Origin: a virus | Direction: 5' to 3' (one strand) | UHGV virus genome: UHGV-0185078 | DNA: 59,749 nt | Shown: one piece after another, positions 1 through 59,749 of the stretch | Layout: each line of letters opens with the position of its first letter | Position numbering within the stretch: the first letter of the stretch is position 1 | Made by a program: the position numbers and the translations under genes | Notes under the pieces: model-generated | What the model saw: the letters and a program-made list of their open reading frames with translations, nothing else | Told to the model about the DNA's origin: nothing | The model's database searches: none

Positions 1-71
1 GTATGGTTCGTATTAACGTAGCGAAGCTTCCAATGTTGATACGTCAAGCTATAGCAGAAGGAAAACTATAA
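1..71 (+). CDS. 3' end of neck/tail-completion protein (HK97 gp10-like) continuing from 59413 across the window junction
   Basis: If window ends are joined, the frame opened at 59413 continues ...SQQAPN|GMVRINVAKLPMLIRQAIAEGKL to TAA at 69-71, which overlaps ATG 71 (TAATG). Confidence 0.45.
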   Translation, partial: MVRINVAKLPMLIRQAIAEGKL

Positions 72-520
72 TGCTTGGATACGATTTCATTAATGATGCA
101 TTTAATAAGATGCTACGCGAAGCAGTTGGACCGGATATTGGTATAGCGTGGAAGAATAAGAAGTTTACACCTAAAGCCAACCAGATGTGGTTAAAGGCAA
201 TTAATGCTCCCGCTTCCACTTACGCAGCAACGCTAGGCGATAACGGTCTGAATGAAATTCCAGGCTTCTACCAAATCACAGTATATAGCCCTTTAAACAC
301 TGGAACGTCTAAGCAGAATCAAATCTTGGATTCTATTCGGAAAAAGTTTAAACTGGGCTTGCGTATCCCGTGCCCGGATGACCACACGTTACGGATTGTC
401 AGTTTAGACTTTTCGCAAGGTGGACAAACTTCGCTGAATGATTTTACCAAAGGCGGGGTTGAAGATAACTGGGACGTTAACTTTATCACAATCTATTGGT
501 CGGCTCGTGAGCCGAGGTAA
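71..520 (+). CDS. putative tail terminator / tail completion protein
   Basis: 149 aa ORF, start overlaps upstream stop; sits between neck genes and major tail protein gene. Confidence 0.45.
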   Translation: MLGYDFINDAFNKMLREAVGPDIGIAWKNKKFTPKANQMWLKAINAPASTYAATLGDNGLNEIPGFYQITVYSPLNTGTSKQNQILDSIRKKFKLGLRIPCPDDHTLRIVSLDFSQGGQTSLNDFTKGGVEDNWDVNFITIYWSAREPR

Positions 521-6970: not shown

Positions 6971-9900
6971 TGCCACCAGCAATAATTGGAGCAGCGATAG
7001 CTTTAGGTGCGTCGGCTGCTGCTGCGGCTAGTATTATTTCGGCTACTACCGCTCTCGTTATCGGTATTGCTGCAACTGCGGCAGGTGCTCTTTTAACTAA
7101 GACACCAAATATGAACTTTGATGCTTACAAGGGGCAGCAAGAGCGTAAACAGGTTCTGCGTGCGGCTACAGCGTCACGCTCTGTTGTATATGGCACGACC
7201 GTAGCGTCCGGACTATTAGCATTTGCGGAGGAAGAAGCTGGAGAACAAGATGAAGGTGAATGGATGCATCTTGTTGTTGTTCTTGCTAGTCATAAATTGG
7301 AAGGTATTGAAACAATTTGGTTGGGTGATGACGGAATTGATTGGTTTGGTGAAAACGCTACTTGGGAGTTTCATAACGACCGTCAGACTGTTGACCCATT
7401 CATGTTAAGACATTGTCCTTCCTGGAAGGAGGATATGATTGGCAAGGGTATTGCATGGCTACGTTTAAGCTTAAAGTTTGATGCTGAAAAATTCCCATCA
7501 GGTTTGCCAAACGTCAAGGTGTTGAAAAAGGGACGTAGAGTCTATGACCCACGTTCCGGTCAAACTGTCTTTAGCGATAATGCTGCTCTTGTTATTCTTG
7601 ATTATTTCCGCACGTATTTAAAGCGCAAGGACGAGAATATCAACTGGGACCAATTCAAGGAAGCTGCTAACATCTGCGATGAGTTTGTTACTAACGCAGA
7701 TAACACTACGGAAAGACGTTACCGCATTAACGGTGAGTTTGAAGTGGATGAAGCACCTGCCAAAATCCTTGATGCTATGCTTGAAGCTTGCGGCGGGGAG
7801 CTTACCTATATTGGTGGTAAACACGGTCTGTTAGTTGGTGCTTATTACGGTCCAGCTACCATGACTCTGGATGAAAGCTGCATTGCTGGGGACATTAAGA
7901 TTATCCCTGAGACATCTTATAAAGAACGCACCAATACCATTACAGGTACATTTGTTGACCCGAAGCAAACATACGCTGAAGCAGATTTTCCTCCAGTTGT
8001 GGTTAAGGAATGGGTGGAAAAAGATGGCGGCGAAATAACGCAAGACATGGATTTCCGCTTCGTTACAAGTGAATATCAAGCGCAACGGCTCGCTAATATT
8101 ATTTTACGTCGTAAGCGTGTTGGTCGAACAATTGAAGTGCCATGTAACATGAAGGGGTATAAATTCCGCCCGGGCATGTATGTTAACGTAACAATTTCAA
8201 ATATTGGAATGAAAAATGTTGAGATGCGCGTTACTAAATGGTCATTCGATCCTAAAGGTGGGATTAATCTTGTCCTTCGTCAAGACTTCCTGGAAATGTG
8301 GGACGACGCTATTGGTAAACCAATGGAGCGCCCGGATCTGGTAGACCTCCCGTCTGGTGCTATTGCTCAACCGCAAAACCTTCAGTATCAGGCATTGCAG
8401 ATTAGCGATGTTGTGCAGGGTGTTTTAACGTGGAGCAATATTGGACAGGTAGCGTATAACCGCGTAGCCGTGCGACAGGGAGGTACAACGGTTTGGACCG
8501 CACAAGTCCCTGGCCAAAACGTTCGCGTTACTGGGTTGCTGCGGGGCGCGTATACAGCACATGTTCAAGCGGTAGCCTATAGTGGGGCGGTATCACCGGA
8601 AGCGTATCTGGAATTTAATATTCAAGCTCCACCTCCTCCAACGTCTATTGAAGTGCAACAAGGTTACTTTGCAATAAGTCTAATCCCTAAATCCGCGGAT
8701 ATTGCAAACGTTAGCACGCAATATGATTTCTGGACGTCCGGTGAAACAAGATTGTCTTCCGTGTCTACAGATATTGTGGAACGCGAAGCGACTCGTAAAG
8801 GTATGGGTACAACATGGACTTCAGAAGGTTTGAAGAATGGCCACACTTACTACTGGTATGTTCGCACTATTAACGCTTTTGGATCGTCTGCATTTGTAGA
8901 GGTTGCTGCATTGTGTTTCACAACAGCTACAGACTTAATGCCACAGATTGATTCTGAGTTCAAGAAGACGGAGACTTATAAAGAGCTTACTGCTGAAATT
9001 ACAGGTGTTAAAGACGGTGTTACACAACTCAGTCAAACTGTAGTAGACACAGAAAAGCGTTTAAGTCAAAGTGTTAGCAACGTTCAGCAAAGCGTTATTA
9101 CTTTGGACGGCGTTGTTCAAGATCAGGGTGTTACCATCAACGAACAGGGGCAACTCATTGATGCACAGGGTCGATTAATTGATACGCAAGGTAAAACTAT
9201 TCAGCAAGTCAGCGCCACTGTACAGGAAACAAGTAAAGCAGTCGTAGATCTGGAAGGTAATGTTAACGCGCAATGGGGTGCTAAGGTACAGGTTGACAGT
9301 AAAGGGCAAAAATACGTTGCTGGTATCCAGTTGGGTATGGAAGGTTCAGGCGGTGCTGTACAATCTTACTTCATGGTGAGCGCTAACAACTTTGCTATCT
9401 ATAACCCGACAAACAGCGTAGCAGAATTGGCATTTGCTGTTAAGAACGGTCAAGTGTTCATGAAGGCTGCATTTATTGAAAATGGTACAATTGACAGCGC
9501 TAAAATTTCAAACCAGATTCAGTCAACAAACTACGCTAGCAATAGCGCGGGTTGGATGATCAACAAGAACGGTAGCGCTCAGTTTAACAACGTGACGGTA
9601 CGGGGTACGGTATACGCTAACAACGGATCTTTCACAGGAACAGTGAACGCAACAAGCGGTAAATTCAAGGGTACTGTGGAAGCTACCAGTTTTGTGGGTG
9701 ATGTCGCGAATATGTGTGTCATTGCTGAGTCTGCAATACCAAACACACAAACTACAAGTTCAAGAACCTGGACAAAAACTTTCAAAGACTCATCTGGTTC
9801 AACATTATCTAAAGACTTTGTGTTGTTATTAAGTTATAGTTTAACCGCATATACATCAAATCAGGCAAGTCGTATAATTGTGACTGCTAACATAGGTGGA

Positions 9901-21648: not shown

Positions 21649-21667
21649 TGATCTGTAAAGCTATCTA

Positions 21668-22270: not shown

Positions 22271-22305
22271 GGTTTGCAGTTTCCTTGTTTGTTAATGTGG
22301 TCATA

Positions 22306-23755: not shown

Positions 23756-23756
23756 T

Positions 23757-24239: not shown

Positions 24240-24356
24240 TTTGTTCTCCAGTTTTAACAGCGTTATTCGCTGGTTGTTGGGTTTAAAAGCTTTAGTAGTA
24301 TAGTTGGGTTCCCGCACCCTAAACAATGCGCTAGCGGTGCGGTTTTCGCGGTAAGA

Positions 24357-25522: not shown

Positions 25523-26229
25523 TATTCCACCCCGATATATTTGTGAACCTGAAGCTGCAACGTGTACCCGTGTTTCATACAGCTTTGGACAACCGCTTGG
25601 ATGTTACTGTGGTTAAGATCTTCATCCTGCTCGTCCATTGGCTGTAAATATATCTTACCCTTGAACCCCTTCGGAGGTCTAGCGATAAATGGCGTAGCTT
25701 GATGATCTAATGCTTGAAGAGGTAAACCATCTTCCACGTTTACACAGCACGCTTTAAGTACATATTTAAATGCATTAGCGCGGTAAAGCACAGAAGGATG
25801 AATCTTTGAGGTCTTGGGACTACATACAATCACAGGCAACTGGGAAAAGTTCTTAGGTAAAGGCATAGACCCATTAGTTTCGATTTGCACCAAATAGCCC
25901 CGCGATAACAGTTGTTCAATAAACGGGTTAATTTGCTGACGGAACGGTTCACCCCCAGTAATAACCACAAGTGAGGTGCTATTGCCTGATTCCAGCTTAC
26001 GGCTTTCGATTAAACGCATGATATCAACAATGTGGTAAAGAGAACGACCAACAGTATAATCCGTGTCGCAGCCCGGGCATTGTAGGTTACATCCAGCAAG
26101 ACGCACAAATACAGCAGGTTGGCCGCAGAATGGCCCTTCACCCTGAATGGTAGAGAATACCGAATGCACGTCTAAATACATATCGTTTTCTTTAGAACGA
26201 GACTCGGGAGCTTGTTGATTAATATTCAT
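25522..26229 (-). CDS. queE: 7-carboxy-7-deazaguanine synthase (radical SAM)
   Basis: 235 aa; radical-SAM Cys triad CNLQCPGCDT; AGAGGA RBS. Confidence 0.9.
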   Translation of the reverse strand: MNINQQAPESRSKENDMYLDVHSVFSTIQGEGPFCGQPAVFVRLAGCNLQCPGCDTDYTVGRSLYHIVDIMRLIESRKLESGNSTSLVVITGGEPFRQQINPFIEQLLSRGYLVQIETNGSMPLPKNFSQLPVIVCSPKTSKIHPSVLYRANAFKYVLKACCVNVEDGLPLQALDHQATPFIARPPKGFKGKIYLQPMDEQDEDLNHSNIQAVVQSCMKHGYTLQLQVHKYIGVE

Positions 26230-42442: not shown

Positions 42443-42463
42443 AAATCCTCCTAGTGAACTGGT

Positions 42464-42740
42464 AATGCCACTATAAAACAGCTATTAGCTATTTGCAAGA
42501 ATTGTTTTAATATAGTGCTTAGTGGCGTACATAGTGGGCAAAACGTGTATAGTACGTCGTTACTGGCTTTGTAAAAGTTTGCCACTATAAACCACTATCC
42601 CACTATCCACTAATTTTTTATTTTTACACAGAGCAAAGTTTATAAGTTTACGGTTTCCCCCTTATTACCCCGTTTTCAAACAAAGAATTAGTAGTAGTAG
42701 TGAAAACGTGTAAATGCCACTATCACTACTATACTATTAA
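42464..42740. repeat. iteron cluster, repeated (G)CCACTAT motif in both orientations
   Basis: gccactataaa (42467), inverted atagtgc/tagtggc/atagtggg (42512-42538), tandem gccactataaa-ccactatcc-cactatcc-actaa (42581-42613), gccactatcactactatactatt (42716-42738). Confidence 0.55.
42470..42498 (-). promoter_or_regulatory. candidate sigma70-like promoter for gene 41714-42442, overlapping an iteron
   Basis: Minus strand TTGCAA-17-TATAGT, then AGGAGG RBS and ATG; the -10 is the reverse complement of the CCACTAT iteron. Confidence 0.45.
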
Positions 42741-42769
42741 TTATCTGAAAAAAGTTGGGAGTATACCCC

Positions 42770-42935
42770 TATAAACTTATAAACTTTCAGTCAACTAACT
42801 AAAATAAACCAAATTAAACTAATATTAATAATAACTATAAATATATATAAAATAAGGATTTATTATTATTGTATATAGTACCTATTGGTATTATGTGATG
42901 AGTTTATAGTCACTAAATAAACTCTATAAATTTTA
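42770..42935. other. strongly AT-rich tract with ATAAAC repeats (candidate DNA unwinding element)
   Basis: About 165 bp of mostly A/T with repeated ataaac/ataaat motifs immediately beside the iteron cluster. Confidence 0.5.
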
Positions 42936-43110
42936 ATAAACCTGAACGGATGCAGATCAAAAACGAGAAGTCAAGTGCTTTTGAGGGAAATTTATTGAAC
43001 TATTGTGATCGAAAGGTATATCAAGCTATAATGCGCTTAATCGCGGAGTATTGGAGGAGGACTTTATTGCGCGGTTAACCGGACCAGTTGGAGGGCTGAC
43101 CCGGTTGGAG

Positions 43111-43440
43111 TTAAAGTTCGGTGATTTGGTAAAGGCTAATAGTGTCGTTGGACATTACGCCGGACAGGATGCCGTTCGTCCAGTTTATGCAGTAAGGCGA
43201 ATGTAACGTGTTATGCATGAAGTAAAGGTCGTTATTGATAATGCTTCGCATCGGCTGTACTGCAATAAGGTTGTCTTCTAAAACGTGCTTTACATAGTCG
43301 TCATTAGGAATAGTAAAGCTGTCTTTAAACTTGCCGAACATTGGCGTTAATTTTACAAGGCGACCTTTTTGTTCAACCTTGTATACGTTCTTGCGGAAGA
43401 ACTGACCGTGTTCAATATAGCTGCGTACGAAACTAGTCAT
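43111..43440 (-). CDS. hypothetical protein
   Basis: 109 aa ORF. Confidence 0.4.
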   Translation of the reverse strand: MTSFVRSYIEHGQFFRKNVYKVEQKGRLVKLTPMFGKFKDSFTIPNDDYVKHVLEDNLIAVQPMRSIINNDLYFMHNTLHSPYCINWTNGILSGVMSNDTISLYQITEL

Positions 43441-43551
43441 TTATTCGTCCTCCATCAAAGCGCGTTTCATGTCACCGTTGCATACAACGGCAATTCCCAT
43501 TTCATAAAGTGCTTCAAGTTGCTCGATAGTAATTGTTTCATAGTAAGACAT
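43441..43551 (-). CDS. small hypothetical protein
   Basis: 36 aa from ATG 43551 (GAGGA RBS); longer track ORF starts at a non-ATG codon and overlaps the upstream gene. Confidence 0.3.
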   Translation of the reverse strand: MSYYETITIEQLEALYEMGIAVVCNGDMKRALMEDE

Positions 43552-43604
43552 GTTTGTATCCTCAGGTTGTTGAGGGCTCCCGCAGAAGCCGATGTGGTTA
43601 TCGA

Positions 43605-44219
43605 TTAAGCGTCCAGGCCGTTGTACTTGCGCCATGCGTAGAACTGGATTGCTACTGTTGTGCCGTTGTAAGAAGGCATTGCAGCTTTCATTTCTTTCAG
43701 CTCAGGTGTACGTCCCAGCTCAGCGAGCAGCTTGTCACCCATTGCCCAAACTTCAGCAGTTTTACCTTTCAGCGGCTTGCGAGCGCCATTTTTAAAATCA
43801 CAGCGAGCAGCTTTTGCATCTTGTTTTGGCGCGGCAGCTTTTGGCTCTTCAATTTTGATTTCAGAAACCTGCGTGGCAGCTTTTGCGTGTTTCATATCTT
43901 TCTCTTCCTCCTGCTCCAGAGCTTCGAGGCAGCTTTTGACGATTTCCGGATTTACCATCGGGCGCAGTACCGAGACGCTAGCAGCAGGCGCGGCGGTCGG
44001 TGCCGGGACTTTCTGCCCCGGCTGTTGCGCTTTTTTATGGTCGCGCAGTACCTGAAGCACTTCCTTCTCGACGATATAAAAACCGATTTCGTCCTGATGG
44101 ATAAGCTGTTCGTGTGCATCGCGTGCAACCTGGCCCCAGCGGGTCTTAAGGGCACGGCGTGCATTCGTTTTCATGGTGTAACGCATTTTGTCCTGTTCGC
44201 GGTGAGTTACTTTAGACAT
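43605..44219 (-). CDS. Lys/Ala/Glu-rich protein with conserved C-terminal domain (paralog of 26299-27102)
   Basis: 204 aa; C-terminal VWAMGDKLLAELGRTPELKEMKAAM...FYAWRKYNG aligns with the C-terminus of ORF 26299-27102. Confidence 0.45.
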   Translation of the reverse strand: MSKVTHREQDKMRYTMKTNARRALKTRWGQVARDAHEQLIHQDEIGFYIVEKEVLQVLRDHKKAQQPGQKVPAPTAAPAASVSVLRPMVNPEIVKSCLEALEQEEEKDMKHAKAATQVSEIKIEEPKAAAPKQDAKAARCDFKNGARKPLKGKTAEVWAMGDKLLAELGRTPELKEMKAAMPSYNGTTVAIQFYAWRKYNGLDA

Positions 44220-44308
44220 GGTATGTTCCTTCTGTTAGATTGTTTAGTTGTCTTGCTAAGTTGACTTATTATTGCCCACCGTGTTGAAATGGGCAAGATA
44301 TAAATCAC

Positions 44309-44458
44309 TTAATTTGTAATTTTATCTACACAGTAGTCAGCATCAAATTCCGCCGGGCTAATACCCAATTGGGCAATTGCAGCCGCTTCAGCTTCAACGA
44401 AATTGTTGGCTTCAATGAACGCGACGATAACACCGTATTTATTAATGACTTCGTACAT
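44309..44458 (-). CDS. small hypothetical protein (first leftward gene)
   Basis: 49 aa ORF MYEVINKYGVIVAFIEANNFVEAEAAAIAQLGISPAEFDADYCVDKITN, translated by hand; below the track size cutoff. Confidence 0.3.
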   Translation of the reverse strand: MYEVINKYGVIVAFIEANNFVEAEAAAIAQLGISPAEFDADYCVDKITN

Positions 44459-44795
44459 GGTCTAACCCTTAATGTGGTTAAGCAGTATTGCTTTGTTGAA
44501 GTAATAATAGCCTTGCATCGTGATATTGAATAGGCCAAAAGTGCTATTTTAGATCACTATTACATCTACAGCTTTGCAGTAACGCTACGCTAAAAATGCA
44601 AAGTTTTACGTTTGCTAAACATGTAGATTTTGTGCTCATCCCTCTTAGTACGTATAACGTCTATTATGTTAAATAGCTAAGTTATTGATTTATGGTAAAT
44701 CTTGTATCAATTTGGACGTTATAGGCGTCTAACGTATTGATTTATAAGGGTGTAAAATTTTGCTGTTTGTAGCGCATAAAAAGGAACAAACCGGG

Positions 44796-44824
44796 ATGTC
44801 ATAAAATGACATGTGTTTTGTCAT
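44796..44824. promoter_or_regulatory. operator-like overlapping inverted repeats in the divergent control region
   Basis: atgtcat-aaa-atgacat perfect palindrome overlapping atgaca-N7-tgtcat; three TGTCAT-type half sites just upstream of the putative rightward promoter. Confidence 0.4.
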
Positions 44825-44844
44825 TATAAATGCCACGTTTGGCC

Positions 44845-44873
44845 TAGACATAGATCAAGTCATGGCGTACTAT
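44845..44873 (+). promoter_or_regulatory. candidate rightward early promoter
   Basis: TAGACA-17-TACTAT about 45 nt upstream of the first rightward ORF and its GGAGG RBS. Confidence 0.35.
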
Positions 44874-44916
44874 ATAGTCAAAGGAAAGATAAAGCCGAAA
44901 GGCGGAGGAAAATAAA

Positions 44917-45066
44917 ATGAGAAAGTTTAAAGTCATGTACTACGGTAACTACATTGGAGACGTTAAAGCTCCGAATCGTGCAGATGCAGAAGGTTTCGTT
45001 CGCGCAGAGATGCAGATTGGAATCGCCGATTTTGCAGCCATTATCGAACTGGTAGAGGTATTTTAA
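44917..45066 (+). CDS. small hypothetical early protein
   Basis: 49 aa ORF, GGAGG RBS 9 nt upstream of ATG, directly downstream of the putative rightward promoter; hand-translated. Confidence 0.4.
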   Translation: MRKFKVMYYGNYIGDVKAPNRADAEGFVRAEMQIGIADFAAIIELVEVF

Positions 45067-45067
45067 T

Positions 45068-45208
45068 ATGTCACGCAAATACACGCTTACACGCGCACAG
45101 CACGCGTTATTAATTGCAGCAATGCACGCAGAATATGCAGTTCATGGCTGGCATAGTGCCATGATGCGCGGTAAAAGCATATATGCGGACATGCGCTCGC
45201 AAGGATAA
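45068..45208 (+). CDS. small hypothetical early protein
   Basis: 46 aa ORF starting 1 nt after the previous stop; hand-translated. Confidence 0.3.
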   Translation: MSRKYTLTRAQHALLIAAMHAEYAVHGWHSAMMRGKSIYADMRSQG

Positions 45209-45244
45209 CGCACACAGCGCCACGCTAGCGAGCTAATGTACATA

Positions 45245-45264
45245 GGTAATGGTAATGCATTACC
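45245..45264. repeat. ggtaat direct repeat followed by 14-bp perfect palindrome ggtaatgcattacc
   Basis: Read directly from the sequence in the 45209-45774 non-coding region. Confidence 0.5.
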
Positions 45265-45475
45265 AACACACAACGAGCGCGCTGTACCCCACAAAGCGGC
45301 GCTAATTTCAATACTCACAGGCTGTACGTTAACGCGTACGGCCTGCTCTTCTATATGCACGCCATGTATATAGCCAGCTCACGATGCACATCAATATAAT
45401 TACGAATGAAATGGATTCGTTTTGGAAGAATAACGATTCTTACCGTCGCAGACCGGTCCGATGAGCCAACTCATA

Positions 45476-45600
45476 GACCCCACCTAGGATCATCAGGGTA
45501 CTAATAATCACCCAAGGGCGCCTTATCCATCCTGATAGTAAGTGCTTGTCTAAATCTCACCCATCACATAGCCTATCCACCTACATCCATGACCCCACCT
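45476..45600. repeat. direct repeats gaccccacct (45476-45485 and 45591-45600) with tatccac-like motifs between
   Basis: Two 10-bp identical copies 115 bp apart; intervening ccatcc / ctatccacc motifs. Confidence 0.45.
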
Positions 45601-45774
45601 ACCTTCTTTTTGAATATATTGCGCTCATCCTTTCTAAATATATGGATTTTGGTAGTAAATTCTAAGTCGTCAACGTATAATTCGTCTTGTAGCTGCTCCA
45701 TAGCTACCATCTTTAAGCGGATGCAACCAATTTCTATCAATTCACACCTGTTTTTAGAGCATCAAGGAGGTATT

Positions 45775-49761: not shown

Positions 49762-50022
49762 ATGACTACATTCAGTCACCTGATCCCACCTGCTTATCAT
49801 AGTAAGGTAGTTGACCACGGGACGCATGTTGTAATTGGTGGCGAAATCTTTATCACAGATAACGAGGAAATCGCCATTGCAATTATTGACAGCACTCAGC
49901 ATGACTTTATGGTTATCCTGCAACACGAACCAGATAACTTCACTTTTTACTCCAACTACGGGGTCGATAAAGGTGGAAAAGGTCTTGTTAGCTGGTACAT
50001 TAACGACTGGTTTGACGGGTAA
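49762..50022 (+). CDS. hypothetical protein
   Basis: 86 aa, GAGGG RBS. Confidence 0.4.
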   Translation: MTTFSHLIPPAYHSKVVDHGTHVVIGGEIFITDNEEIAIAIIDSTQHDFMVILQHEPDNFTFYSNYGVDKGGKGLVSWYINDWFDG

Positions 50023-50104
50023 TCTCCTTAGATCAATTCTCCTTGCGCCGTATCAAGTTTCTCTGTTACCCTTGAGTGGTTCATGTCAAGCGGAGGAACT
50101 CGAT

Positions 50105-50542
50105 ATGGCACTTCAACCTCGTGGTATTCGTAATAACAATCCAGGTAATATTCGCTGGGGTGACAATTGGCAGGGCTTAGTTCCTGCTGATAAGCGAACC
50201 GATAAATCTTTTGCTCAATTCACGCAACCGATTTACGGCATTCGTGCACTAGCGAAAATCCTGACAAACTACACCAAACGTGAAGGCTTACCCAATGTGG
50301 GTAAGAAAAACATCGACACTGTACGTGAAATCATCACTCGCTGGGCACCGCCTAACGAAAACGATACGGAAGCGTATATTCGCTCTGTTGCCAAAGCAAT
50401 TGGTGTTCAACCTAACGATCCAATTAATGTCTTTGACAAGGCAATTATGTCAGGATTGGTGAAAGCAATCATTCGTCATGAAAATGGCATGATGCCCTAT
50501 ACCGACGACGTAATTAACCGCGCTATTGCAATGGTAATTTAA
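50105..50542 (+). CDS. putative endolysin (peptidoglycan hydrolase)
   Basis: ATG 50105 with GGAGG RBS; 145 aa soluble protein immediately upstream of holin and spanin genes; fold class not assigned. Confidence 0.5.
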   Translation: MALQPRGIRNNNPGNIRWGDNWQGLVPADKRTDKSFAQFTQPIYGIRALAKILTNYTKREGLPNVGKKNIDTVREIITRWAPPNENDTEAYIRSVAKAIGVQPNDPINVFDKAIMSGLVKAIIRHENGMMPYTDDVINRAIAMVI

Positions 50543-50547
50543 CTGAC

Positions 50548-50569
50548 GGGGCGTTAGCCCCTTTTATTT
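50548..50569 (+). terminator. candidate attenuator/terminator between endolysin and holin
   Basis: ggggc-gtta-gcccc hairpin followed by ttttattt. Confidence 0.4.
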
Positions 50570-50578
50570 GGAGGGAAC

Positions 50579-50923
50579 ATGTTCAATTCACCCAACGAAC
50601 ATTGGGCAGTTCTAGCGGGGTTTGCGTTTATCTCCCTTATTGGGGGAGCTCTCGGTTATGTTATGCGTACAATAGACGCTGGTAAGAAAGTACGGGCAAG
50701 CATTGCATTTCTTGAAGGCTTATCCGCCGCTTTCTTTGGCGTTATAATGTATGCGATCTACAGGGAGTTTAACATCAGCCTTTGGTTCGCTTTTGGCCTT
50801 GCTGGCCTATTTGCTTGGGCAGGTTCACGTGCTACGCTAAAAGCCCTAACGTCGCTTATAGCTTCACGGACAGGGATCAAACTCGATTCAGGGGACTGCA
50901 AACATGAAAACGATTCTAAATAA
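50579..50923 (+). CDS. holin (three transmembrane helices)
   Basis: 114 aa, three hydrophobic helices, charged C-terminus; GGAGGG RBS. Confidence 0.6.
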   Translation: MFNSPNEHWAVLAGFAFISLIGGALGYVMRTIDAGKKVRASIAFLEGLSAAFFGVIMYAIYREFNISLWFAFGLAGLFAWAGSRATLKALTSLIASRTGIKLDSGDCKHENDSK

Positions 50924-51380
50924 CTTCTTCGGTTTTATAAAAACTAAACCGCGTCTGTTTATCGAGTATTTGATGATCGGCGCGGTTGTGTTTTTATGCG
51001 GGGTGGCTGCTTACTTGTGGTCACAGAACGAGCTCAGCAAAACTAATTTAAATCATGCTGAGCAAAGACTAACCGTTGTAGAACGGGACAATGCAAAGCT
51101 GGGCGAAGCTGTTGTATTTCTTGCATCCCAACGGGAGAAGGATACTGAATCCTATCGAAAATTGGCTTCAGCAATTGAAAGTGAGCAACATAACCACAGG
51201 TTGCTTCAGGACAAATTAAAAGCACTGGAGAAAAGCAATGCCGACGTCAAAGCTTATCTTAATGAGCGTGTTCCTGATGATTTGCGCAGGCTGCTCGACG
51301 GAGATACAACCTCCACCACCGCCACAGATAGTGAAGATAAAACTTCCGGCTCATCTGTTGGTAGAATGTCGGGAAGTTGA
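50904..51380 (+). CDS. i-spanin (Rz-like)
   Basis: N-terminal transmembrane helix, coiled-coil periplasmic domain; contains the o-spanin gene in another frame. Confidence 0.55.
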   Translation: MKTILNNFFGFIKTKPRLFIEYLMIGAVVFLCGVAAYLWSQNELSKTNLNHAEQRLTVVERDNAKLGEAVVFLASQREKDTESYRKLASAIESEQHNHRLLQDKLKALEKSNADVKAYLNERVPDDLRRLLDGDTTSTTATDSEDKTSGSSVGRMSGS

Positions 51381-51543
51381 TAAATATCCTTTGGTTTATA
51401 CAAGGGACATTATCCAACGTTTGCAGGATACAGAAACAGCTCTGACTGAATGTAAACTGAGGGTTAAGGAAATCATACGCTATGAAGCTGAAAATGTTTC
51501 GCTTGATTTTGTAGGATCAAGCAATTATATTCAGCCTAAATAG
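51238..51543 (+). CDS. o-spanin (Rz1-like lipoprotein)
   Basis: LMICAGCS lipobox then PPPPP tract; starts inside the i-spanin gene and extends past it. Confidence 0.55.
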   Translation: MPTSKLILMSVFLMICAGCSTEIQPPPPPQIVKIKLPAHLLVECREVDKYPLVYTRDIIQRLQDTETALTECKLRVKEIIRYEAENVSLDFVGSSNYIQPK

Positions 51544-51566
51544 CAATAAGAAAAGGGGGGGCTTCC

Positions 51567-52124
51567 ATGAACGGGGCAAGTCAAGAGCAATATGATCGTG
51601 ACTGGACGAATTACATCCAGTATGCAAATAGCTTGTCCGCTGAAGAGATGGCAATACGTGACAAAGTTGTTGCTGAGTACATGTTCGACTACAATTGGAC
51701 TAACGCTTGCATGAGATGCGGGTTCAATGCTATGTTTGCACAGGAGCTTGGCCAACGCTTTGCCACGGACTGTTATGTTCGATGGAAGCTCAAGGAGATT
51801 GAAAGATCCCGTGTTCAACGTACTTCTGAGCAAGCTAACATTGAAGCAGACCTTGAGCGTCAGCATATCATTGAAGCATTAAAACGTGAAGCTCATTATA
51901 CAGGACCGGGGTCTTCTCAAGCTGCTAGAGTCGCTGCATTGGGCAAGCTTGCACAAATTTATGATTTGGATGCTCCCAAGAAGGCTAAGATTGATGTTAC
52001 TAACAGAGGCGGCGTAATGATAGTCCCTGCTGTAGCAAATATTGACGAATGGGAAAAAACTGCATCCGAGTCTCAACAACGACTAGTTAAAGAGACTGAA
52101 GATGGAGCTAAACCGACAACCTGA
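51567..52124 (+). CDS. terminase small subunit
   Basis: 185 aa ORF directly upstream of, and overlapping, the large terminase gene. Confidence 0.55.
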   Translation: MNGASQEQYDRDWTNYIQYANSLSAEEMAIRDKVVAEYMFDYNWTNACMRCGFNAMFAQELGQRFATDCYVRWKLKEIERSRVQRTSEQANIEADLERQHIIEALKREAHYTGPGSSQAARVAALGKLAQIYDLDAPKKAKIDVTNRGGVMIVPAVANIDEWEKTASESQQRLVKETEDGAKPTT

Positions 52125-53661
52125 TAACATGCCGCGAGTAGTCTGGAAGCCACATCCAGGTTCACAGACGCTCGCTTTATCCTGTCCTGCTGATATCATT
52201 TTATACCACGGTACTCGCGGTCCTGGAAAGACGGACTGTCAGCTTATGCGTTTCCGTAAGAATGTTGGCGTAGGGTACGGTAAATTCTGGAAGGGTATTA
52301 TATTCGACCGTGAATATAAAAACCTTGATGACCTTGTAACTAAGTCACAGCGTTGGTTTCCTGAATTTAAAGACGGTGCTAAATTCCTTAGTTCCAAGTC
52401 TGATTATAAATGGGTTTGGCCTACTGGGGAAGAATTGCTGTTCCGTGTTGCTTGCAAAGAAAAGGATTATTGGTCTTATCATGGTCACGAATACCCGTTT
52501 ATCGGATGGAACGAATTAACAAAGTATCCGGACGGGCGTTTGTTTGAAGCAATGATGTCCTGTAACCGTTCATCATTCCTACCCGAAGATAATCCAATCA
52601 TCAATCCGGACGGTACTGTCACATATTTACCAGACATTCCTCTGGAAGTGTTTGCCACCAGTAACCCGTTTGGCGCGGGGCATAACTGGGTTAAGAAACG
52701 CTTCATTGACGCTGCACCGATGGGTAAAATACTCAGGAAAACTACGCGAGTGTTTAACCCGCGGACGCAGAAAGAGGAAGATGTGGTTACGACGCAATGC
52801 CATATCTTCGGATCTTACCGTGAGAACAAAAACCTGAGCCCGAAATATATTGCAGAGCTTATGTCCATCACAGACCCGAACAAACGAGCTGCATGGTTAG
52901 GCGGTAGCTGGGATATCACCTCCGGCGGTATGTTCGATGATCTGTGGCGTAGCACTGTTCATAAAATACGCCCATTCCCAATCCCATCAAGCTGGAAGAT
53001 TACACGTTCTTTCGACTGGGGTTCTTCAAAACCATTCTCCGTTGGCTGGTGGGCTATTAGTGACGGTTCGGATGTTATACGTGAAGATGGTACTACATTC
53101 TCTACTGTTCGCGGTGACTTATTCCGTATTAACGAGTGGTACGGCACTAATGGTAAAACAAACGAAGGTCTACATTTGCTGGACTCAGAGATTGCAAGCG
53201 GTATACTGGAGCGGGAATTGGCCTGGGGTATACACGACCGTGTAGTTCCCGGACCTGCGGATAACTCTATTTGGGATCTGGAGAACAATAACTCTACCGC
53301 CGCAACAATGGCGAAGAAAATCCGTCTTAACGGCAAGCTGTATAACGGTATTCATTGGAAGAGAAGTGATAAATCTGCTGGGTCGCGTAAACGCGGATGG
53401 CAGAAAATGCGTGAGTTTCTTAAAGCTGCATTGCGGGAAGATGCAAACGGTAAACCTTTGCCGGGACCACGTGAAAATCCAGCAATGTATGTTTTTGATA
53501 ACTGCAATTATTTCTTTGAACTTGTTCCAAGTCTTCCGCGCGATGAAGTAGATCAGGACGACGTTGATACGGAATGTGAAGACCATATGGGCGATGAAGT
53601 ACGTTATATGGTTCTGGATCAAGCTGTTTATACAGGTGTCGGTAAAACTATCGGTATTTAA
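52102..53661 (+). CDS. terminase large subunit
   Basis: 519 aa; P-loop YHGTRGPGKTD; acidic nuclease-domain motifs in C-terminal half; followed by portal gene. Confidence 0.85.
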   Translation: MELNRQPDNMPRVVWKPHPGSQTLALSCPADIILYHGTRGPGKTDCQLMRFRKNVGVGYGKFWKGIIFDREYKNLDDLVTKSQRWFPEFKDGAKFLSSKSDYKWVWPTGEELLFRVACKEKDYWSYHGHEYPFIGWNELTKYPDGRLFEAMMSCNRSSFLPEDNPIINPDGTVTYLPDIPLEVFATSNPFGAGHNWVKKRFIDAAPMGKILRKTTRVFNPRTQKEEDVVTTQCHIFGSYRENKNLSPKYIAELMSITDPNKRAAWLGGSWDITSGGMFDDLWRSTVHKIRPFPIPSSWKITRSFDWGSSKPFSVGWWAISDGSDVIREDGTTFSTVRGDLFRINEWYGTNGKTNEGLHLLDSEIASGILERELAWGIHDRVVPGPADNSIWDLENNNSTAATMAKKIRLNGKLYNGIHWKRSDKSAGSRKRGWQKMREFLKAALREDANGKPLPGPRENPAMYVFDNCNYFFELVPSLPRDEVDQDDVDTECEDHMGDEVRYMVLDQAVYTGVGKTIGI

Positions 53662-53672
53662 CTGGAGGGTAT

Positions 53673-55169
53673 ATGGGTATTGATGCAACTCACCCGCTAT
53701 ATGACAAGTGGAAGGATGCATGGGTTAAGTGCAACGACTGCTATGAGGGTGAAGATAAAATTAAGGAAGAAGGTGTTAAATATCTGCCACCTTTAGCTTC
53801 CATGCTTATTGATGGGATGAATAATCCTAATGATTTGGGCTTTCAACGTTGGCTCGCTTATCGTCTGCGTGCTAACTTCCCTGACGATTATTCAAGTGCT
53901 GTCACAAACAATTTAGGTCTGTTGCACCAGAAGCCTCCTACAATCCAGCTTCCTCCTGAAATGGAGTACATGCGGGAGCTGTGTACTGCGGACGGTGAAG
54001 ACATTATTGCTCTGCTACGTCGCATCAACGAAATGCAGTTAAAAAATGGACGTTTGGGCCTGCTGCTGGACTTGCCGAAAGGTGAGGATGTAAATAACAG
54101 ACCTTATATTAGCGTTTATGATGCTTTATCCATTATCAACTGGGATGATGGTAAAGATGAACTGGGTAATATCAACTTGAACATGGTTGTACTGGATGAA
54201 AGCGGTCCTGTACGTGTCAATCAGTTTGACTGGAAAGAAGAGAAGCGTTATCGCGTTCTGCAATTAGGTCCAATGGACACAGATGAAGTTGCAGGTGGGG
54301 CAGTTTACTCCCAGCATTTATTTATTAACAATACCAATTATGATGAAGGGCAAATGATTGCTCCTTATTATAAAGGTAACACGCTGGACGAAATACCTTT
54401 CCAGTTTGTCAATACAACAGATATTACCCCAGCACCGGAAGCGCCTCCATTGTTAGGTCTTGCTAACATTTGTCTAAGCATGTACCGAAGTGACGCGGAT
54501 TACCGCCAAAGCTTGCATATGCAGGGGCAGGACACTTTAGTCGTTGTTGGCGGTACTGGGGAGAATGGAGATAAAGCCCCTCAGCGCATCGGTCCTGGAG
54601 CGGTCATTAACGTTGCTATTGGTGGTGACGCTAAATATGTAGGCGTTAGCGGTGACGGTTTGTCCGAGCAACGCCTCGCATTAGCAGCGGATAAGCAAGA
54701 AGCTCAGATTAAAGCCGGGCAGATGGTAAACAACACCAAGAGCACGCAGGAATCGGGCGAAGCTATGAAAACGCGTATTGCTGCGCGTACCGCTAGCCTG
54801 ATTCGAATTGCGTATACTGGTGCGGCAGGTTTGGAAAACTTGCTGAAGGTTTGTGCTAAATGGATGGGTGCTGATCCAGAGAAGGTTGTGGTTAAGCCTA
54901 ATCTTGAATTTACCAAGAGTATGTTTAACGGTCAGGACTTTGTTCAAATTATTACTGCACGCAACCTTAAGGCTCCGATCAGCTTGCAGTCTATTCATGG
55001 CTGGCTTGTTGATCAGGGCTTAACCACACTAAGCTTTGAAGAAGAAATGGCAATTCTTGAAGAAGAGCTTAAGAAGTGGCCTCTGCCCGATGATGCTAAA
55101 GCTGATTTAAACGCAGAGCAGCAAGTAAACAAAGATCCTAAGGAAGACGACGCTTCCGATAAAGAATAG
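53673..55169 (+). CDS. portal protein
   Basis: 498 aa with acidic C-terminus, between terminase and scaffold/capsid genes. Confidence 0.7.
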   Translation: MGIDATHPLYDKWKDAWVKCNDCYEGEDKIKEEGVKYLPPLASMLIDGMNNPNDLGFQRWLAYRLRANFPDDYSSAVTNNLGLLHQKPPTIQLPPEMEYMRELCTADGEDIIALLRRINEMQLKNGRLGLLLDLPKGEDVNNRPYISVYDALSIINWDDGKDELGNINLNMVVLDESGPVRVNQFDWKEEKRYRVLQLGPMDTDEVAGGAVYSQHLFINNTNYDEGQMIAPYYKGNTLDEIPFQFVNTTDITPAPEAPPLLGLANICLSMYRSDADYRQSLHMQGQDTLVVVGGTGENGDKAPQRIGPGAVINVAIGGDAKYVGVSGDGLSEQRLALAADKQEAQIKAGQMVNNTKSTQESGEAMKTRIAARTASLIRIAYTGAAGLENLLKVCAKWMGADPEKVVVKPNLEFTKSMFNGQDFVQIITARNLKAPISLQSIHGWLVDQGLTTLSFEEEMAILEEELKKWPLPDDAKADLNAEQQVNKDPKEDDASDKE

Positions 55170-55264
55170 TTGCAACTTCCAAATTGATTGGTTTATATTA
55201 ACGAACACGGGGCTGGGACGGCTCAGCCCCAAAAACGTCACACGGGTGACAACGGAGATAAGAA

Positions 55265-56137
55265 ATGAAAAAGAGTTCTGTAGCTATTAATGTTGGTATG
55301 GCTTTAATTAATCCACGCGCTCGCGGTGAAGGTGATGTGGAACTGGAATACGAATATGCATCTGCGGAAGAGATTCCGGCAGAGTTTGCTGCTCTTTACG
55401 CAGAGCAGGGCGGTAAATACGTTCTTGCAAAAGTTAAAGGTGTAGCCCCTGCTGATAGCGTTCGTCGTCTGGAAAGTGCGTTAGCTAAAGAACGTAACGA
55501 CCATCGTCAGGTGAAGCAACAGATTAGCGCACTTGGGCGTCCGGTTGAAGAAGTCCTTGCGGACCTTGATCGTATCCCTCAACTGGAAGCTGCCGCTAAC
55601 GGTAAAGGTACTCCGGAAGACATCGAAAAGATGGTTAAAGCCCGTCTTGCTCCACTCGAGCGTCAATTGCAAACTGTAGCAGCTGAACGCGATTCCGTTA
55701 AACAGGAAATTGAAGGCTACCGCACTCGCGAAACTAAAGCGAAGATTAAAGATGCAGTTATTGCCGCTGCTTCTGGTGCTAAATTGCGTCCATCCGCTAT
55801 CGAAGACGCTGTAACTTATGCACAGTTGCAGATGACCGTCGACGAGAACGGCAATGTGGTTACGAAAGATGGGGCTGGTGTAACTCCTTACCTGACTCCG
55901 GCTGACTGGCTGAACGAAATCCTTCCGAAACGTCCGCACTGGGTTGAAGGATCTGCTGGTGGTGGTGCATCTGGTCCGGGCGCTGGTGGCCATCACGGTG
56001 AAGATCCATACAGTCACGACGGTTGGAACATCTCTAAGCAGATGAACCTCTGGAAAACTAACCAATCTTTAGCTAAACGTTTAGCTGAAAAGAATGGCGT
56101 AGACCCGCTGAAGCCTGTACGTCCTGCTAAGAAATAA
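55265..56137 (+). CDS. scaffolding protein
   Basis: 290 aa, Ala/Glu/Lys-rich predicted coiled coil, directly upstream of the major capsid gene. Confidence 0.5.
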   Translation: MKKSSVAINVGMALINPRARGEGDVELEYEYASAEEIPAEFAALYAEQGGKYVLAKVKGVAPADSVRRLESALAKERNDHRQVKQQISALGRPVEEVLADLDRIPQLEAAANGKGTPEDIEKMVKARLAPLERQLQTVAAERDSVKQEIEGYRTRETKAKIKDAVIAAASGAKLRPSAIEDAVTYAQLQMTVDENGNVVTKDGAGVTPYLTPADWLNEILPKRPHWVEGSAGGGASGPGAGGHHGEDPYSHDGWNISKQMNLWKTNQSLAKRLAEKNGVDPLKPVRPAKK

Positions 56138-56138
56138 G

Positions 56139-56184
56139 TTGACATCCCGACGTCCCTGATGTTAAGTTTCAACACATCAGGGAC
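56139..56184 (+). promoter_or_regulatory. candidate promoter with overlapping 11-bp inverted repeat upstream of capsid gene
   Basis: TTGACA-18-TAAGTT; inverted repeat gtccctgatgt...acatcagggac spans the -10 region. Confidence 0.3.
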
Positions 56185-56259
56185 ACGGGTTCCTAAACAG
56201 CCTTCCACGGGGAAAGGCTACCAACAGTAAACAAATCAATCCTTTTCCTGGAGACAAGT

Positions 56260-57321
56260 ATGTCTAAATCTAAAATTATTCTACCATTTGGTCGTGGTGA
56301 AACTGACCTGACTCGTTTGAAGGATGTCATTGTCCCTGAAATCTTCACTGGTTATGTGCAGACGCAGACCGCTGAACTTTCTGCTCTGATTCAATCCGGT
56401 GCAGTTGTAATGGACGAGCGTTTATCTGCTAACCTTGCTGGTGCAGGTTTGACTTTTAACGAGCCGTTCTATAACGACCTGAAAGATGAAGACGAAGATA
56501 TCGCGGTTGATAAAGGTAATCCGTCCAAACCGTCAAACATCACTACCGGATCTGAAGTTCAGGTTCGTATGAGTCGTTCAAAATCCTGGGGTTCTGCGGA
56601 TCTGGTATCTGCTTTGATTGGTAACGACCCAATGACCGCTATCGGCAACCGCGTGTCTGCGTGGTGGGTTCGCCGTCTGCAAGCTGCATACATCGCAACC
56701 TGGAAAGGTGTATTTGCTAATGCGAAGAAATCCCATAACGACGATTTGACTTTCGATATTTCCGGTTCTTCGTTTGTAAACAACCAGACCAACTTTACCG
56801 CGTCTAACTTCATCAACGCAACTGCAACGATGGGTGATGCTGCTCGCGGTCTGACCATGATTATGGTACACTCTACCGTTCGTAACCGTATGCGTCAGTT
56901 GAACCTGATCGACTTCATTCCAGATGCTCGCGGTGAAACTCAGTTTGAGTATTATCAGGGTCTGCGTATTATTGAAGACGACTCCATGCCGCACGATCCG
57001 TCTACTGGTGTCTTCGAAAGCTGGCTGTTCGGTCCGGGCGCCACTGCAATGGGTGCTGGTTCACCAAAAGTTCCGACCGCTGTGGTTCGTGACGAAGCTG
57101 CTAACAATGGCGCTGGTGAAGAAGTTCTTCACAACCGTGTTGAATGGATTCTGCATCCGGTCGGTCATGCTTGGGCCGCTGCCCAAACTGCTAAAGGTGG
57201 TCCGTCTAACGCTGCTACCACTAACAACCTGGCCCATGAAGATTCCTGGCGTCGTGCGTTCCCTGAGCGCAAGCAGCTTAAAGTCGCACGCCTGATCACT
57301 CGTGAGTATCAGGGTTCCTAA
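56260..57321 (+). CDS. major capsid protein
   Basis: 353 aa; GGAG RBS; followed by a strong terminator; position after portal and scaffold. Confidence 0.7.
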   Translation: MSKSKIILPFGRGETDLTRLKDVIVPEIFTGYVQTQTAELSALIQSGAVVMDERLSANLAGAGLTFNEPFYNDLKDEDEDIAVDKGNPSKPSNITTGSEVQVRMSRSKSWGSADLVSALIGNDPMTAIGNRVSAWWVRRLQAAYIATWKGVFANAKKSHNDDLTFDISGSSFVNNQTNFTASNFINATATMGDAARGLTMIMVHSTVRNRMRQLNLIDFIPDARGETQFEYYQGLRIIEDDSMPHDPSTGVFESWLFGPGATAMGAGSPKVPTAVVRDEAANNGAGEEVLHNRVEWILHPVGHAWAAAQTAKGGPSNAATTNNLAHEDSWRRAFPERKQLKVARLITREYQGS

Positions 57322-57352
57322 GGCTTCACTCAACGCCGCGCTGTAGTATTTT

Positions 57353-57378
57353 GGGGACATTTATGTCCCCTCTTTTTT
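57353..57378 (+). terminator. rho-independent terminator after major capsid gene
   Basis: ggggacat-tt-atgtcccc hairpin followed by tctttttt. Confidence 0.75.
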
Positions 57379-57390
57379 AGGAGAACAACC

Positions 57391-57714
57391 ATGCGTTATC
57401 AACGTTATGAACGACATGACTTGATGGAAAAATCGTTGCAGGTGGAGCCAATTTCGATTACTCTTGATCCTGCTAAGATTGACACCACAACTTCAGAAGT
57501 AAAGACGGTTACTGTTAAAATAAACTTTGTCCCAGGCGGAACTACAAACAAAGCGTATAGCGCGTCAGTTGACGGTTCCTCTGCTACAATTAAAGACAAC
57601 GGGGACGGTACAATTACCGTGACCACAACCGCAAGCAGTGGTACTTCAAACTTGACAGTAACGTCCAAGGCAAAGGATAGTGTTACTGGTACATGTGTTA
57701 TTAATGTGACCTAA
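57391..57714 (+). CDS. Ig-like (Big_2-type) domain protein, possible capsid decoration protein
   Basis: 107 aa, Thr/Ser/Val-rich beta-strand pattern typical of bacterial Ig-like domains. Confidence 0.55.
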   Translation: MRYQRYERHDLMEKSLQVEPISITLDPAKIDTTTSEVKTVTVKINFVPGGTTNKAYSASVDGSSATIKDNGDGTITVTTTASSGTSNLTVTSKAKDSVTGTCVINVT

Positions 57715-57730
57715 AAATAAGGATTAAACA

Positions 57731-58384
57731 ATGAAGACATTAATTGAAGCATTGTTAGAACTTGATCCGGATAACCCGAATCATTGGACTAGCGACGGTC
57801 TACCTAAAGTTGACGCTCTGCGTTTCGCTACTGCTAACCCGTCTTTAACCCGCGACGATATTACAACTGCTGCTCCGCTGTTTACTCGCGATAACCGCGT
57901 GCTGGAAGAGCCAGAGCCAGTGGAACCTGTTAAATCTGCTGATCCAGTTTTACATGAAGCTGTCAAACAGGAGAAAGCTCATGAAGAACAAAAGAAAGTC
58001 GCGGTTGCAACGATGCAAATCGAAGTTAAGATTAGCGAAGCACTGCGTGCTCTTCTGGAGCCGGAAAAAATCGGTGACACTTCCAGCCTAAGCGATGAAG
58101 AGCTAAAAGCGAAGCGTGAAAAGCTTAGCAATGTGGTTAAAGAGATTGCCCACACTAAGCACGCGCTGGAGCTTGCTATTACCGACGTTCAAGCGGATCT
58201 GGATAAGATTATCGTTGAGCAGGAAAGTCGTCGTCCTAAGTCCGGTCTTACTGCAACTCAGATGTATCTCGAGGCGCAGAAAAAACGTAAACCTGAAGAC
58301 ATGCTTTCTGACCATCGCTTCCAGAACCCTATTGACGATCCGGTTGCCCGTATGGTTGCACGTAATATGATGCGTCGAGGTTAA
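57731..58384 (+). CDS. hypothetical structural-module protein
   Basis: 217 aa, acidic coiled-coil-rich. Confidence 0.4.
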   Translation: MKTLIEALLELDPDNPNHWTSDGLPKVDALRFATANPSLTRDDITTAAPLFTRDNRVLEEPEPVEPVKSADPVLHEAVKQEKAHEEQKKVAVATMQIEVKISEALRALLEPEKIGDTSSLSDEELKAKREKLSNVVKEIAHTKHALELAITDVQADLDKIIVEQESRRPKSGLTATQMYLEAQKKRKPEDMLSDHRFQNPIDDPVARMVARNMMRRG

Positions 58385-58522
58385 TCATGGAAATGAGCCA
58401 TAGACAATATGTGTTGTGGCTCCTCCGACGTAATAGAAAACGGCGTCAAGAAGACGCCGTTTCTGTTCCTGAAGAAGAGCTCCCGCCACTTATCCCTACA
58501 ACCATCGCAATGAGGAAGAAAG

Positions 58523-59029
58523 ATGGAGATTCCACTGATAGTTGAAGATGGTACTGGTGTACCGGACGCCAACAGTTATGTGACCATTGAACAAGTCCGC
58601 ATGTATGCAGCAATGCGAGGTATTGTACTTCCAAGTGAAGATGAAGATCTAAAGACAAAGATCTTTGACGCTATGGATTTTGTGGAAGGGTACAGCCAAC
58701 GCTTTAAAGGTTATAAAATTGACCCACAGCAACCGCTAAATTGGCCACGCTACGGGGTGTTTGTGGACGGGTTCGAGCTACCCCAAAGCCCCTTACCAAA
58801 GGCGCTTATAAACGCTGTTTGCCAGCTTACAGCGGACTCATCTACTGGCGGTCCTCTTAATGGGAAAACTACTGCATACGCAGTCAAAAGAACTAAAGTA
58901 GAAGGTCTTGAGATTGAATATGCAACTGGTAGCACCGCACAGTCCGGTCCAGCAAAAACATATGATAAAGCTATGACGTTTTTATCACCTTTGCTGGGTT
59001 ATCAAATGGGTAATAGATTGATACGGTGA
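58523..59029 (+). CDS. head-tail connector protein (gp6-like)
   Basis: 168 aa; position between capsid and tail genes. Confidence 0.45.
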   Translation: MEIPLIVEDGTGVPDANSYVTIEQVRMYAAMRGIVLPSEDEDLKTKIFDAMDFVEGYSQRFKGYKIDPQQPLNWPRYGVFVDGFELPQSPLPKALINAVCQLTADSSTGGPLNGKTTAYAVKRTKVEGLEIEYATGSTAQSGPAKTYDKAMTFLSPLLGYQMGNRLIR

Positions 59030-59032
59030 TTT

Positions 59033-59413
59033 ATGAGCTTTCCTTACGAGCAGCTAGTTGAAGCCGCAAAGCAAATGATCAACGATGCTGGTGTTAACTG
59101 TACCCTTGTGGTTATGGAGCAAGGGGAAGGTCAAGATGAATGGGACGATCCAAGCGTTGAAAAACGATACCCATTCATTGGAGCTTTCCTTTCACCAAAG
59201 GAAAAGATGATTGGTGGCAGCCTTGTTTCTGCTGGTGAACTGAAAGTGTTAACTTACCCAATGACACCTCCATTGACTCGCGATAAAGCAATGACTGCAC
59301 GCATTGAGCGTATGTCGCCGGATGGGGAGCTGGAAGTGTGGACCATAAATGAGTTTGTTGATACACGACCAGCTAACGTTTCTGTTCTTTACACTTTTAA
59401 GGTGACGCGATAA
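59033..59413 (+). CDS. head-tail joining (head closure) protein
   Basis: 126 aa; position in neck module. Confidence 0.45.
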   Translation: MSFPYEQLVEAAKQMINDAGVNCTLVVMEQGEGQDEWDDPSVEKRYPFIGAFLSPKEKMIGGSLVSAGELKVLTYPMTPPLTRDKAMTARIERMSPDGELEVWTINEFVDTRPANVSVLYTFKVTR

Positions 59414-59749
59414 TGGGATTCGGGGCGGATATTCGACGTGCGAGCCAGAAGGTACTTGTTCAGACAAGCGAGCAAGCCAAAAAAGTCGTTGTCAAGTTCA
59501 CAGAGAACGTGATACAGGATACTCCTGTTAAGACCGGACGTACAAAAGGTGGTTGGCGGTCATCCATTGGCGCGCCGTATGCAACGGAAACTATCCGCCT
59601 CGATCCTACTGGAGAGATGGCTAAAGCTGAAGCCCGAGTTGTTGCACGTCAACTACCTAATGATAAAGACTGGACTTTCTATTTTAGCAACCTGACACCA
59701 TATGCTGGCAAACTGGAGTTCTTAGGTTGGTCACAGCAAGCTCCGAACG
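59413..59749 (+). CDS. neck/tail-completion protein (HK97 gp10-like), 5' part, runs off window end
   Basis: ATG 59413 (GGTGA RBS) overlapping upstream stop; open to the last base of the window. Confidence 0.5.
   Translation, partial: MGFGADIRRASQKVLVQTSEQAKKVVVKFTENVIQDTPVKTGRTKGGWRSSIGAPYATETIRLDPTGEMAKAEARVVARQLPNDKDWTFYFSNLTPYAGKLEFLGWSQQAPN

Follow-up and report, generated by a model that had tools for sequence, protein, structure and literature searches.

Arbitrary opening within the Neck1 gene of a Seuratvirus genome record, and predicted fixed ends of the virion DNA

Results

A gene divided between the two ends of the window

The window analyzed here, a stretch of viral DNA of 59,749 nucleotides, very probably represents one complete, non-redundant genome unit, derived from a circular assembly that was opened at an arbitrary base within codon 113 of the gene encoding the Neck1 protein, and its two ends are arbitrary. 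In our interpretation, the assembly had become a closed circle, which was then output as a linear sequence beginning at an arbitrary position; the junction 59749/1 (the slash denotes a boundary between two bases) is an artefact of representation at which nothing biological happens. Arbitrary opening is a well-known kind of artefact, found here in a known phage genus.

An ATG-initiated open reading frame extends on the plus strand from 59413 to 59749 (337 nt, that is 112 codons and one base) and is free of stop codons up to the end of the window. Once base 59749 is joined to base 1, bases 1-2 complete codon 113 (G/GT) and the frame stays open from base 1 to a TAA at 69-71, the last A of which is the first base of the ATG at 71-73 (TAATG). 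The same one-nucleotide TAATG overlap connects the upstream gene at 59033..59413 to the split ORF. The joined ORF measures 408 nt and encodes 135 amino acids. The original prediction had read the stop-free frame from 59413 across the junction to the TAA at 69-71 with its TAATG overlap, and its coordinates proved exact.

Taken alone, the open frame across the junction is weak evidence and does not go beyond chance: a direct count on the plus strand of the window shows at least 23 further open codons at 41% of arbitrary continuation points. The observation is significant because homology spans the junction, not because the frame is open. The joined 135-amino-acid product matches PHROG 169 (tail completion or Neck1 protein) with an E value of 7.8e-43 over residues 1-134, and therefore the 23 residues coded at the start of the window are part of the conserved protein. 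The assignment was supplied by PHROGs, the joined protein having no Pfam-A match at E ≤ 0.01. Furthermore, the length of the joined ORF equals that of gp10 of phage CAjan (tail completion or Neck1 protein; 7848..8255, 408 nt), and the neighbours are the same: in both genomes the gene sits between those of the head closure protein Hc1 and of the tail terminator. The joined ORF is a full-length tail-completion/Neck1 protein, and the split gene is absent from the ORF listing of the linear window. The genes on either side of the junction are as follows.

58523-59029, head-tail adaptor Ad1, upstream of Hc1
59033..59413, plus strand, head closure Hc1 (PHROG 161, E = 2.7e-15); its stop overlaps the Neck1 ATG (TAATG)
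59413..59749, plus strand, 5' part of the Neck1 gene: codons 1-112 and the first base of codon 113 (PHROG 169; equivalent to CAjan gp10)
1..71, plus strand, 3' part of the Neck1 gene: last two bases of codon 113, codons 114-135 and the TAA at 69-71
71..520, plus strand, tail terminator (PF13554, E = 2e-18; PHROG 179); its ATG overlaps the Neck1 TAA
535-1458, tail tube (PF18906), downstream

In the phage, the Neck1 gene is intact and translationally coupled through TAATG within a head-tail connector module made of Ad1, Hc1, Neck1, the tail terminator and the tube.

Contiguity of the junction in related genomes

The junction was then compared with independent sequences. A 675-nt query centred on it gave one single ungapped alignment covering 675/675 nt, at 86-98% identity, in 33 out of 33 related GenBank records. 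These records are opened at many different places, including terS, terL and internal points (for instance 37,805/37,806 for SLUR25 and 30,088/30,089 for slur01). The intact 135-amino-acid gene was also present in all ten independent ENA, Logan or NCBI contigs examined, from metagenomes or isolates; all ten encode an identical tail-terminator protein, and the Neck1 gene lies directly upstream of it. Six of them code for a Neck1 protein with 100% identity to the product of the joined ORF, and no indels were found around the junction.

Around the whole circle the window is collinear with KS_A8, SLUR25, CAjan and others, and it is an exact cyclic permutation of such Seuratvirus genomes. Positions 1-25000 of the window correspond to KS_A8 8185-32961 and positions 25001-50000 to KS_A8 32962-58290; the last 2.75 kb of the window ends at KS_A8 8184, while base 1 is KS_A8 8185. 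Placed on the maps of the relatives, the three segments of the window follow one another end-to-end around the circle. The unit lengths of these relatives range from 59,399 to 59,895 bp (59,670 for CAjan) as compared with 59,749 bp for the window. The two ends of the window have no exact repeat of at least 5 nt in common, and self-BLAST of the window (E = 1e-10 or better) revealed neither an internal repeat nor a second repeat copy. The contiguity of the junction in the 33 records and the ten contigs, together with this cyclic collinearity, bears out the earlier proposal that a complete genome was opened arbitrarily and that the window ends are not physical. No result spoke against arbitrary opening.

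Identity of the window and other features of the genome

Nucleotide identity between the window and Seuratvirus relatives (including CAjan, Seurat, the SLUR and KS_ phages and the BASEL Seuratviruses) amounts to 93-98% over 80-100% of each of the three segments. The ICTV genus threshold is about 70% nucleotide identity. By its nucleotide sequence, the window belongs to a coliphage of the genus Seuratvirus (Queuovirinae). Gene order, the 135-amino-acid Neck1 gene and a preQ0 cluster are shared with CAjan, Seurat, KS_A8 and the SLUR phages. The window is identical to no record, the best match for whole segments being about 95-98%. CAjan, Seurat and most other records are opened at terS, whereas the window is opened inside Neck1, at the equivalent of CAjan 8184/8185. 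The terminase genes, which mark the conventional opening point (as in the CAjan map), occupy 51567..53661 of the window.

51567-52124, plus strand, small terminase gene terS (PHROG 5334)
52102-53661, plus strand, large terminase gene, TerL (PHROG 2; weak PF03237 match)

Overall, the records of the genus are opened at a dozen different points; that of PLYYY01 ends at window position 58,384. Two relatives carry unexpected host labels: Aeromonas phage SD04, whose TerL is 99.8% identical to that of the window, and Cronobacter phage CSP1, with 95.9% nucleotide identity to window positions 50001-59749 (the terminase-to-neck block).

A cluster for DNA modification and a putative frameshift site were also located.

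20,668-26,229, minus strand, preQ0/7-deazaguanine DNA-modification cluster: DpdA homologue, FolE, QueD, Vut_1-like transporter, QueC and QueE-like radical-SAM protein

FolE, QueD and QueC have clear Pfam matches. The QueE candidate gave a Radical_SAM match only, at 27.0 bits, which is below the Pfam curated cut-off of 29.5, and the DpdA homologue (20668-21588), for which no Pfam match was obtained, is assigned by synteny with CAjan gp35. Directly before the stop codon of the 135-amino-acid gene at 1468-1875 lies a canonical -1 slippery heptamer, T_TTT_TTC (1866-1872). The -1 frame (1872-2273) is open for 133 codons up to a TAA at 2271-2273, which overlaps the ATG of the tape-measure gene. From its sequence and position, the slippery site is predicted to be that of the usual G/GT tail-assembly-chaperone frameshift. 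The slippery motif of phage 9g, CCCUUUUUUU (PMC4276943), is absent from the window, which has a different slippery site. Scans of the window for tRNAs and Rfam families yielded nothing.

Terminal repeats in the records of related phages

Two Seuratvirus records contain both copies of a long direct repeat. The record of Escherichia phage ECP2304 (OR880647.1; 63,590 bp) carries an exact terminal repeat of 3,695 bp, leaving a unit of 59,895 bp, and that of Hafnia phage yong3 (OM868075.1; 62,823 bp) carries an exact terminal repeat of 3,424 bp. Although the two phages are quite divergent, homology puts the right ends of both records at one and the same nucleotide, 1 nt before the 15-mer TCCATCCTGATAGTA. 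Their left ends are no more than about 7 alignment columns apart and fall in one AT-rich non-coding region, although the unit lengths differ by 496 bp. Opening a 60-kb circle arbitrarily on two occasions would not produce such agreement, and these ends were therefore taken as real termini. In our literature search nothing was found on how the ends of ECP2304 or yong3 had been determined, yong3 appearing only in passing mentions. The same search returned no statement of a terminal repeat in a Seuratvirus, and the BASEL and SLUR papers have nothing on termini.

Comparable ends are seen in the sister genus Nonagvirus. The record of HdSG1 (MK373795.1; 63,595 bp) shows an exact repeat of 3,363 bp at both ends, for a unit of 60,232 bp; its last bases are ...GCCGCGGGGCGGCTC, and the left copy is followed by TTAGATC. 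In the accessible part of the article by Korf et al. (PMC6563267), this repeat is not mentioned. The record of HdK1 (64,059 bp) gave matches at two places. For phage 9g, a sharp one-sided hot spot of read starts was reported at position 28,243, from which a terminal repeat of unknown size was deduced (Kulikov et al., PMC4276943). In the 9g record this position falls 4.6 kb upstream of terS, within a non-coding stretch of 605 bp that separates the early genes, directed leftward, from the late genes, directed rightward. The 9g hot spot and the right end of the HdSG1 repeat (...GGGGCGGCTC/TTAGATC) agree to the nucleotide, the two results coming from independent laboratories and different methods. 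Finally, a direct terminal repeat of 1,091 bp was established by nanopore read mapping for the Pseudomonas phage iggy, another member of the Queuovirinae (PMC10484667).

The total lengths of ECP2304 and HdSG1, 63,590 and 63,595 bp, are nearly equal despite different unit lengths and genera. This may be a coincidence or a hint of a limit in head capacity.

Predicted ends of the virion DNA

The boundaries of the ECP2304 and yong3 repeats, two phages with the same gene map as the window, are homologous to window positions around 42.7 kb and 45,524. The following features were placed accordingly.

42700..42740, plus strand, predicted left end zone (start of the repeat), mapped from the first bases of ECP2304 and yong3; low-confidence alignment, about ±20 nt
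42724..45524, no strand, region predicted to be present twice in the virion DNA and once in the window: direct terminal repeat of about 2.8 kb, from ECP2304 and yong3
45526..45540, plus strand, conserved 15-mer TCCATCCTGATAGTA, 1 nt to the right of the predicted right end 45,524/45,525

The last base of ECP2304 aligns to window position 45,524, and the right end is therefore predicted at 45,524/45,525, where the terminus sequence would read GGGCGCCTT/ATCCATCC. This point is located within a non-coding stretch of 566 bp (45,209-45,774) at the head of the rightward gene block. The 15-mer TCCATCCTGATAGTA occurs once in the window, as compared with 0.05 matches expected by chance, and is invariant in ECP2304, yong3 and CAjan, where it occupies the corresponding position. 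Since the terminal repeats of ECP2304 and yong3 stop 1 nt short of it, it is a candidate terminase cleavage or recognition site. A search of IMG/VR with the extended terminus motif, using a pattern verified on the loci, returned 0 matches.

Gene annotation around this point calls for two remarks. The 145-amino-acid ORF at 45,589-46,026 matches PHROG 24875 only from residue 63 onwards; the real start of this gene is probably the ATG at 45,775, the first 62 codons being non-coding. In CAjan, TCCATCCTGATAGTA (record position 53,993) falls inside the annotated hypothetical gene gp75 (53842-54120), and the homologous region of the window has no convincing ORF. The gp75 annotation may be spurious.

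The predicted left end lies within the AT-rich non-coding region 42,443-43,110. Several copies of (G)CCACTAT(A/C) are found in this region, and a perfect inverted repeat of 16 nt, AAAGTTTATAAGTTTA / TAAACTTATAAACTTT (42,635-42,650 and 42,772-42,787), brackets the predicted cut. At the homologous place, ECP2304 and yong3 carry different short iterated motifs, GGAATAAT-like and GGGTATAAT-like, respectively. Such differences suggest that the iterated motifs could be phage-specific protein-binding sites.

Six small genes without a known function would lie in the predicted repeat, together with the divergent intergenic region at 44,459-44,916. Both copies of the repeat are present in ECP2304 and yong3, as against a single copy in the window. 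Extra small genes make the repeats of these two phages longer, at 3.7 and 3.4 kb, than the repeat of about 2.8 kb predicted here. The opening points of the SLUR75, SLUR76 and SLUR26 records fall within the predicted repeat region.

Fixed ends or headful packaging

It is fairly likely, in our view, that the virions of this phage contain a linear DNA whose ends are fixed and which carries a direct terminal repeat of about 2.8 kb (about 42,72x to 45,524), with the right-hand cut placed 1 nt before TCCATCCTGATAGTA. In a short-read assembly the two repeat copies would collapse and give a circle of unit length, whereas the packaged molecule would be about 62.5 kb long. For Seuratviruses in general, this genome included, we lean towards fixed-end DNA with a direct repeat of 2.8-3.7 kb, cut 1 nt upstream of TCCATCCTGATAGTA, in preference to pac-headful packaging.

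The main alternative is headful packaging initiated at a pac site: a first cut would be made precisely near 45,524, about 105% of the genome would then be packaged in the leftward direction, and the virion DNA would be terminally redundant and partly circularly permuted. The announcement of phage Seurat infers this mode from a comparison of TerL, the record itself being opened at terS by convention (PMC4342423). The authors of the OddieOddie genome interpreted a circular assembly as "possible headful" (PMC9022592), and S4, a more distant relative as regards TerL, was called P1-type headful by PhageTerm (PMC11769102). A 2026 preprint on phages that include Seuratviruses describes circular contigs and failed PhageTerm reorientation. 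The reads of 9g, with a single one-sided hot spot that other reads cross, also fit a precise pac cut (PMC4276943), and the near-equal totals of 63,590 bp for ECP2304 and 63,595 bp for HdSG1 fit a head-capacity limit. The TerL of the window, moreover, has a weak Pfam match to Terminase_6N, of T4 type. Against this mode stand the exact repeats, with both ends defined, in the three records that were checked directly (ECP2304, yong3 and HdSG1), and the two matches within HdK1. In addition, the left ends of ECP2304 and yong3 are only a few alignment columns apart in the same non-coding region in spite of the 496-bp difference in unit length, and the terminal repeat of iggy was defined by long reads (PMC10484667). 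Taking the two sides together, we regard pac-headful packaging as unlikely for this phage.

TerL comparisons give 64-69% identity between the window and PBPA162, a close relative of iggy, or Nonagvirus phages, and 49% identity with SCUT-S3, a close relative of S4. Of the TerL relatives for which there is evidence on the ends, the nearest are phages with terminal repeats. A sequence search of the PDB with TerL found no match even at E ≤ 1.

The original prediction had left a choice between an arbitrarily opened circular map and a circularly permuted assembly. The first fits better than circular permutation as a property of the virion DNA, since relatives have exact terminal repeats with conserved boundaries; the DNA in the virion is probably not circularly permuted. 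Whether packaging uses fixed ends or the headful mode, the window ends are arbitrary, and we hold this with a confidence that is very high or higher still.

Two further readings concern the junction itself. According to one, positions 1 and 59749 are at or near true physical ends and the continuity of the ORF is coincidental. The sole point in its favour is that chance alone would leave 23 further codons open at about 41% of arbitrary joins, and its probability is negligible: the junction is ungapped in 33/33 relatives, six independent assemblies encode a full-length protein identical to the joined one, an essential connector gene would be split, and the ends of relatives, whether deposited or read-mapped, map 14-17 kb away. 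A defined end near position 1, the result named in the original prediction as speaking against it, was not what emerged, the predicted ends being 14-17 kb distant. The other reading, an incomplete or misjoined contig with sequence missing or duplicated at the break, had nothing in its favour and can likewise be dismissed, given the ungapped 675/675 nt, a gene of exactly 408 nt as in CAjan, the lack of terminal overlap, the end-to-end mapping of the segments around relatives and the matching unit length.

Discussion

The opening of the window has an immediate consequence for annotation. A gene caller applied to the linear record loses or truncates an essential connector gene, and annotation or comparison should start from a rotated record. 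The genome ends of this phage cannot be read from the record as it stands.

If the predicted terminal repeat is real, the virion DNA measures about 62.5 kb and not 59.7 kb. Each virion would then contain two copies of the divergent promoter region that separates the leftward and rightward blocks, and two of about six small genes, which would enter the cell first. Such a repeat would also bear on the rebooting or synthesis of the genome, on sizing by restriction or PFGE, and on the "headful" label published for the genus. What appears mildly new is the concordance of database evidence for long terminal repeats and a conserved terminus motif in Seuratviruses, which, at the level of deposited sequences, would run contrary to the headful label of Seurat.

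A closely related system is that of the Nonagviruses 9g and HdSG1, members of the sister genus, whose TerL is about 67-69% identical to that of the window. Their end also lies in a non-coding stretch that heads the late rightward block, several kb upstream of terS. The terminus sequences differ (GGGGCGGCTC/TTAGATC in 9g, GGGCGCCTT/ATCCATCC predicted in the window), and local alignment of the 9g end region (27.7-28.4 kb) with the window gave nothing above chance. Since DNA similarity is not detectable there, the 9g end can be transferred to the window by position only.

Phage T5 has long terminal repeats of about 10 kb, with early genes present in two copies, and in assembly such repeats collapse to give a circular contig. 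The repeat predicted in the window would likewise provide two copies of small genes, but it would extend over only about 2.8-3.7 kb, and, in contrast to T5, no first-step-transfer mechanism is indicated for this phage. With the pac-headful phages P22 and P1, assemblies also circularise and records are opened by convention. These phages, however, have no fixed second end, whereas relatives of the window have been deposited with two defined ends.
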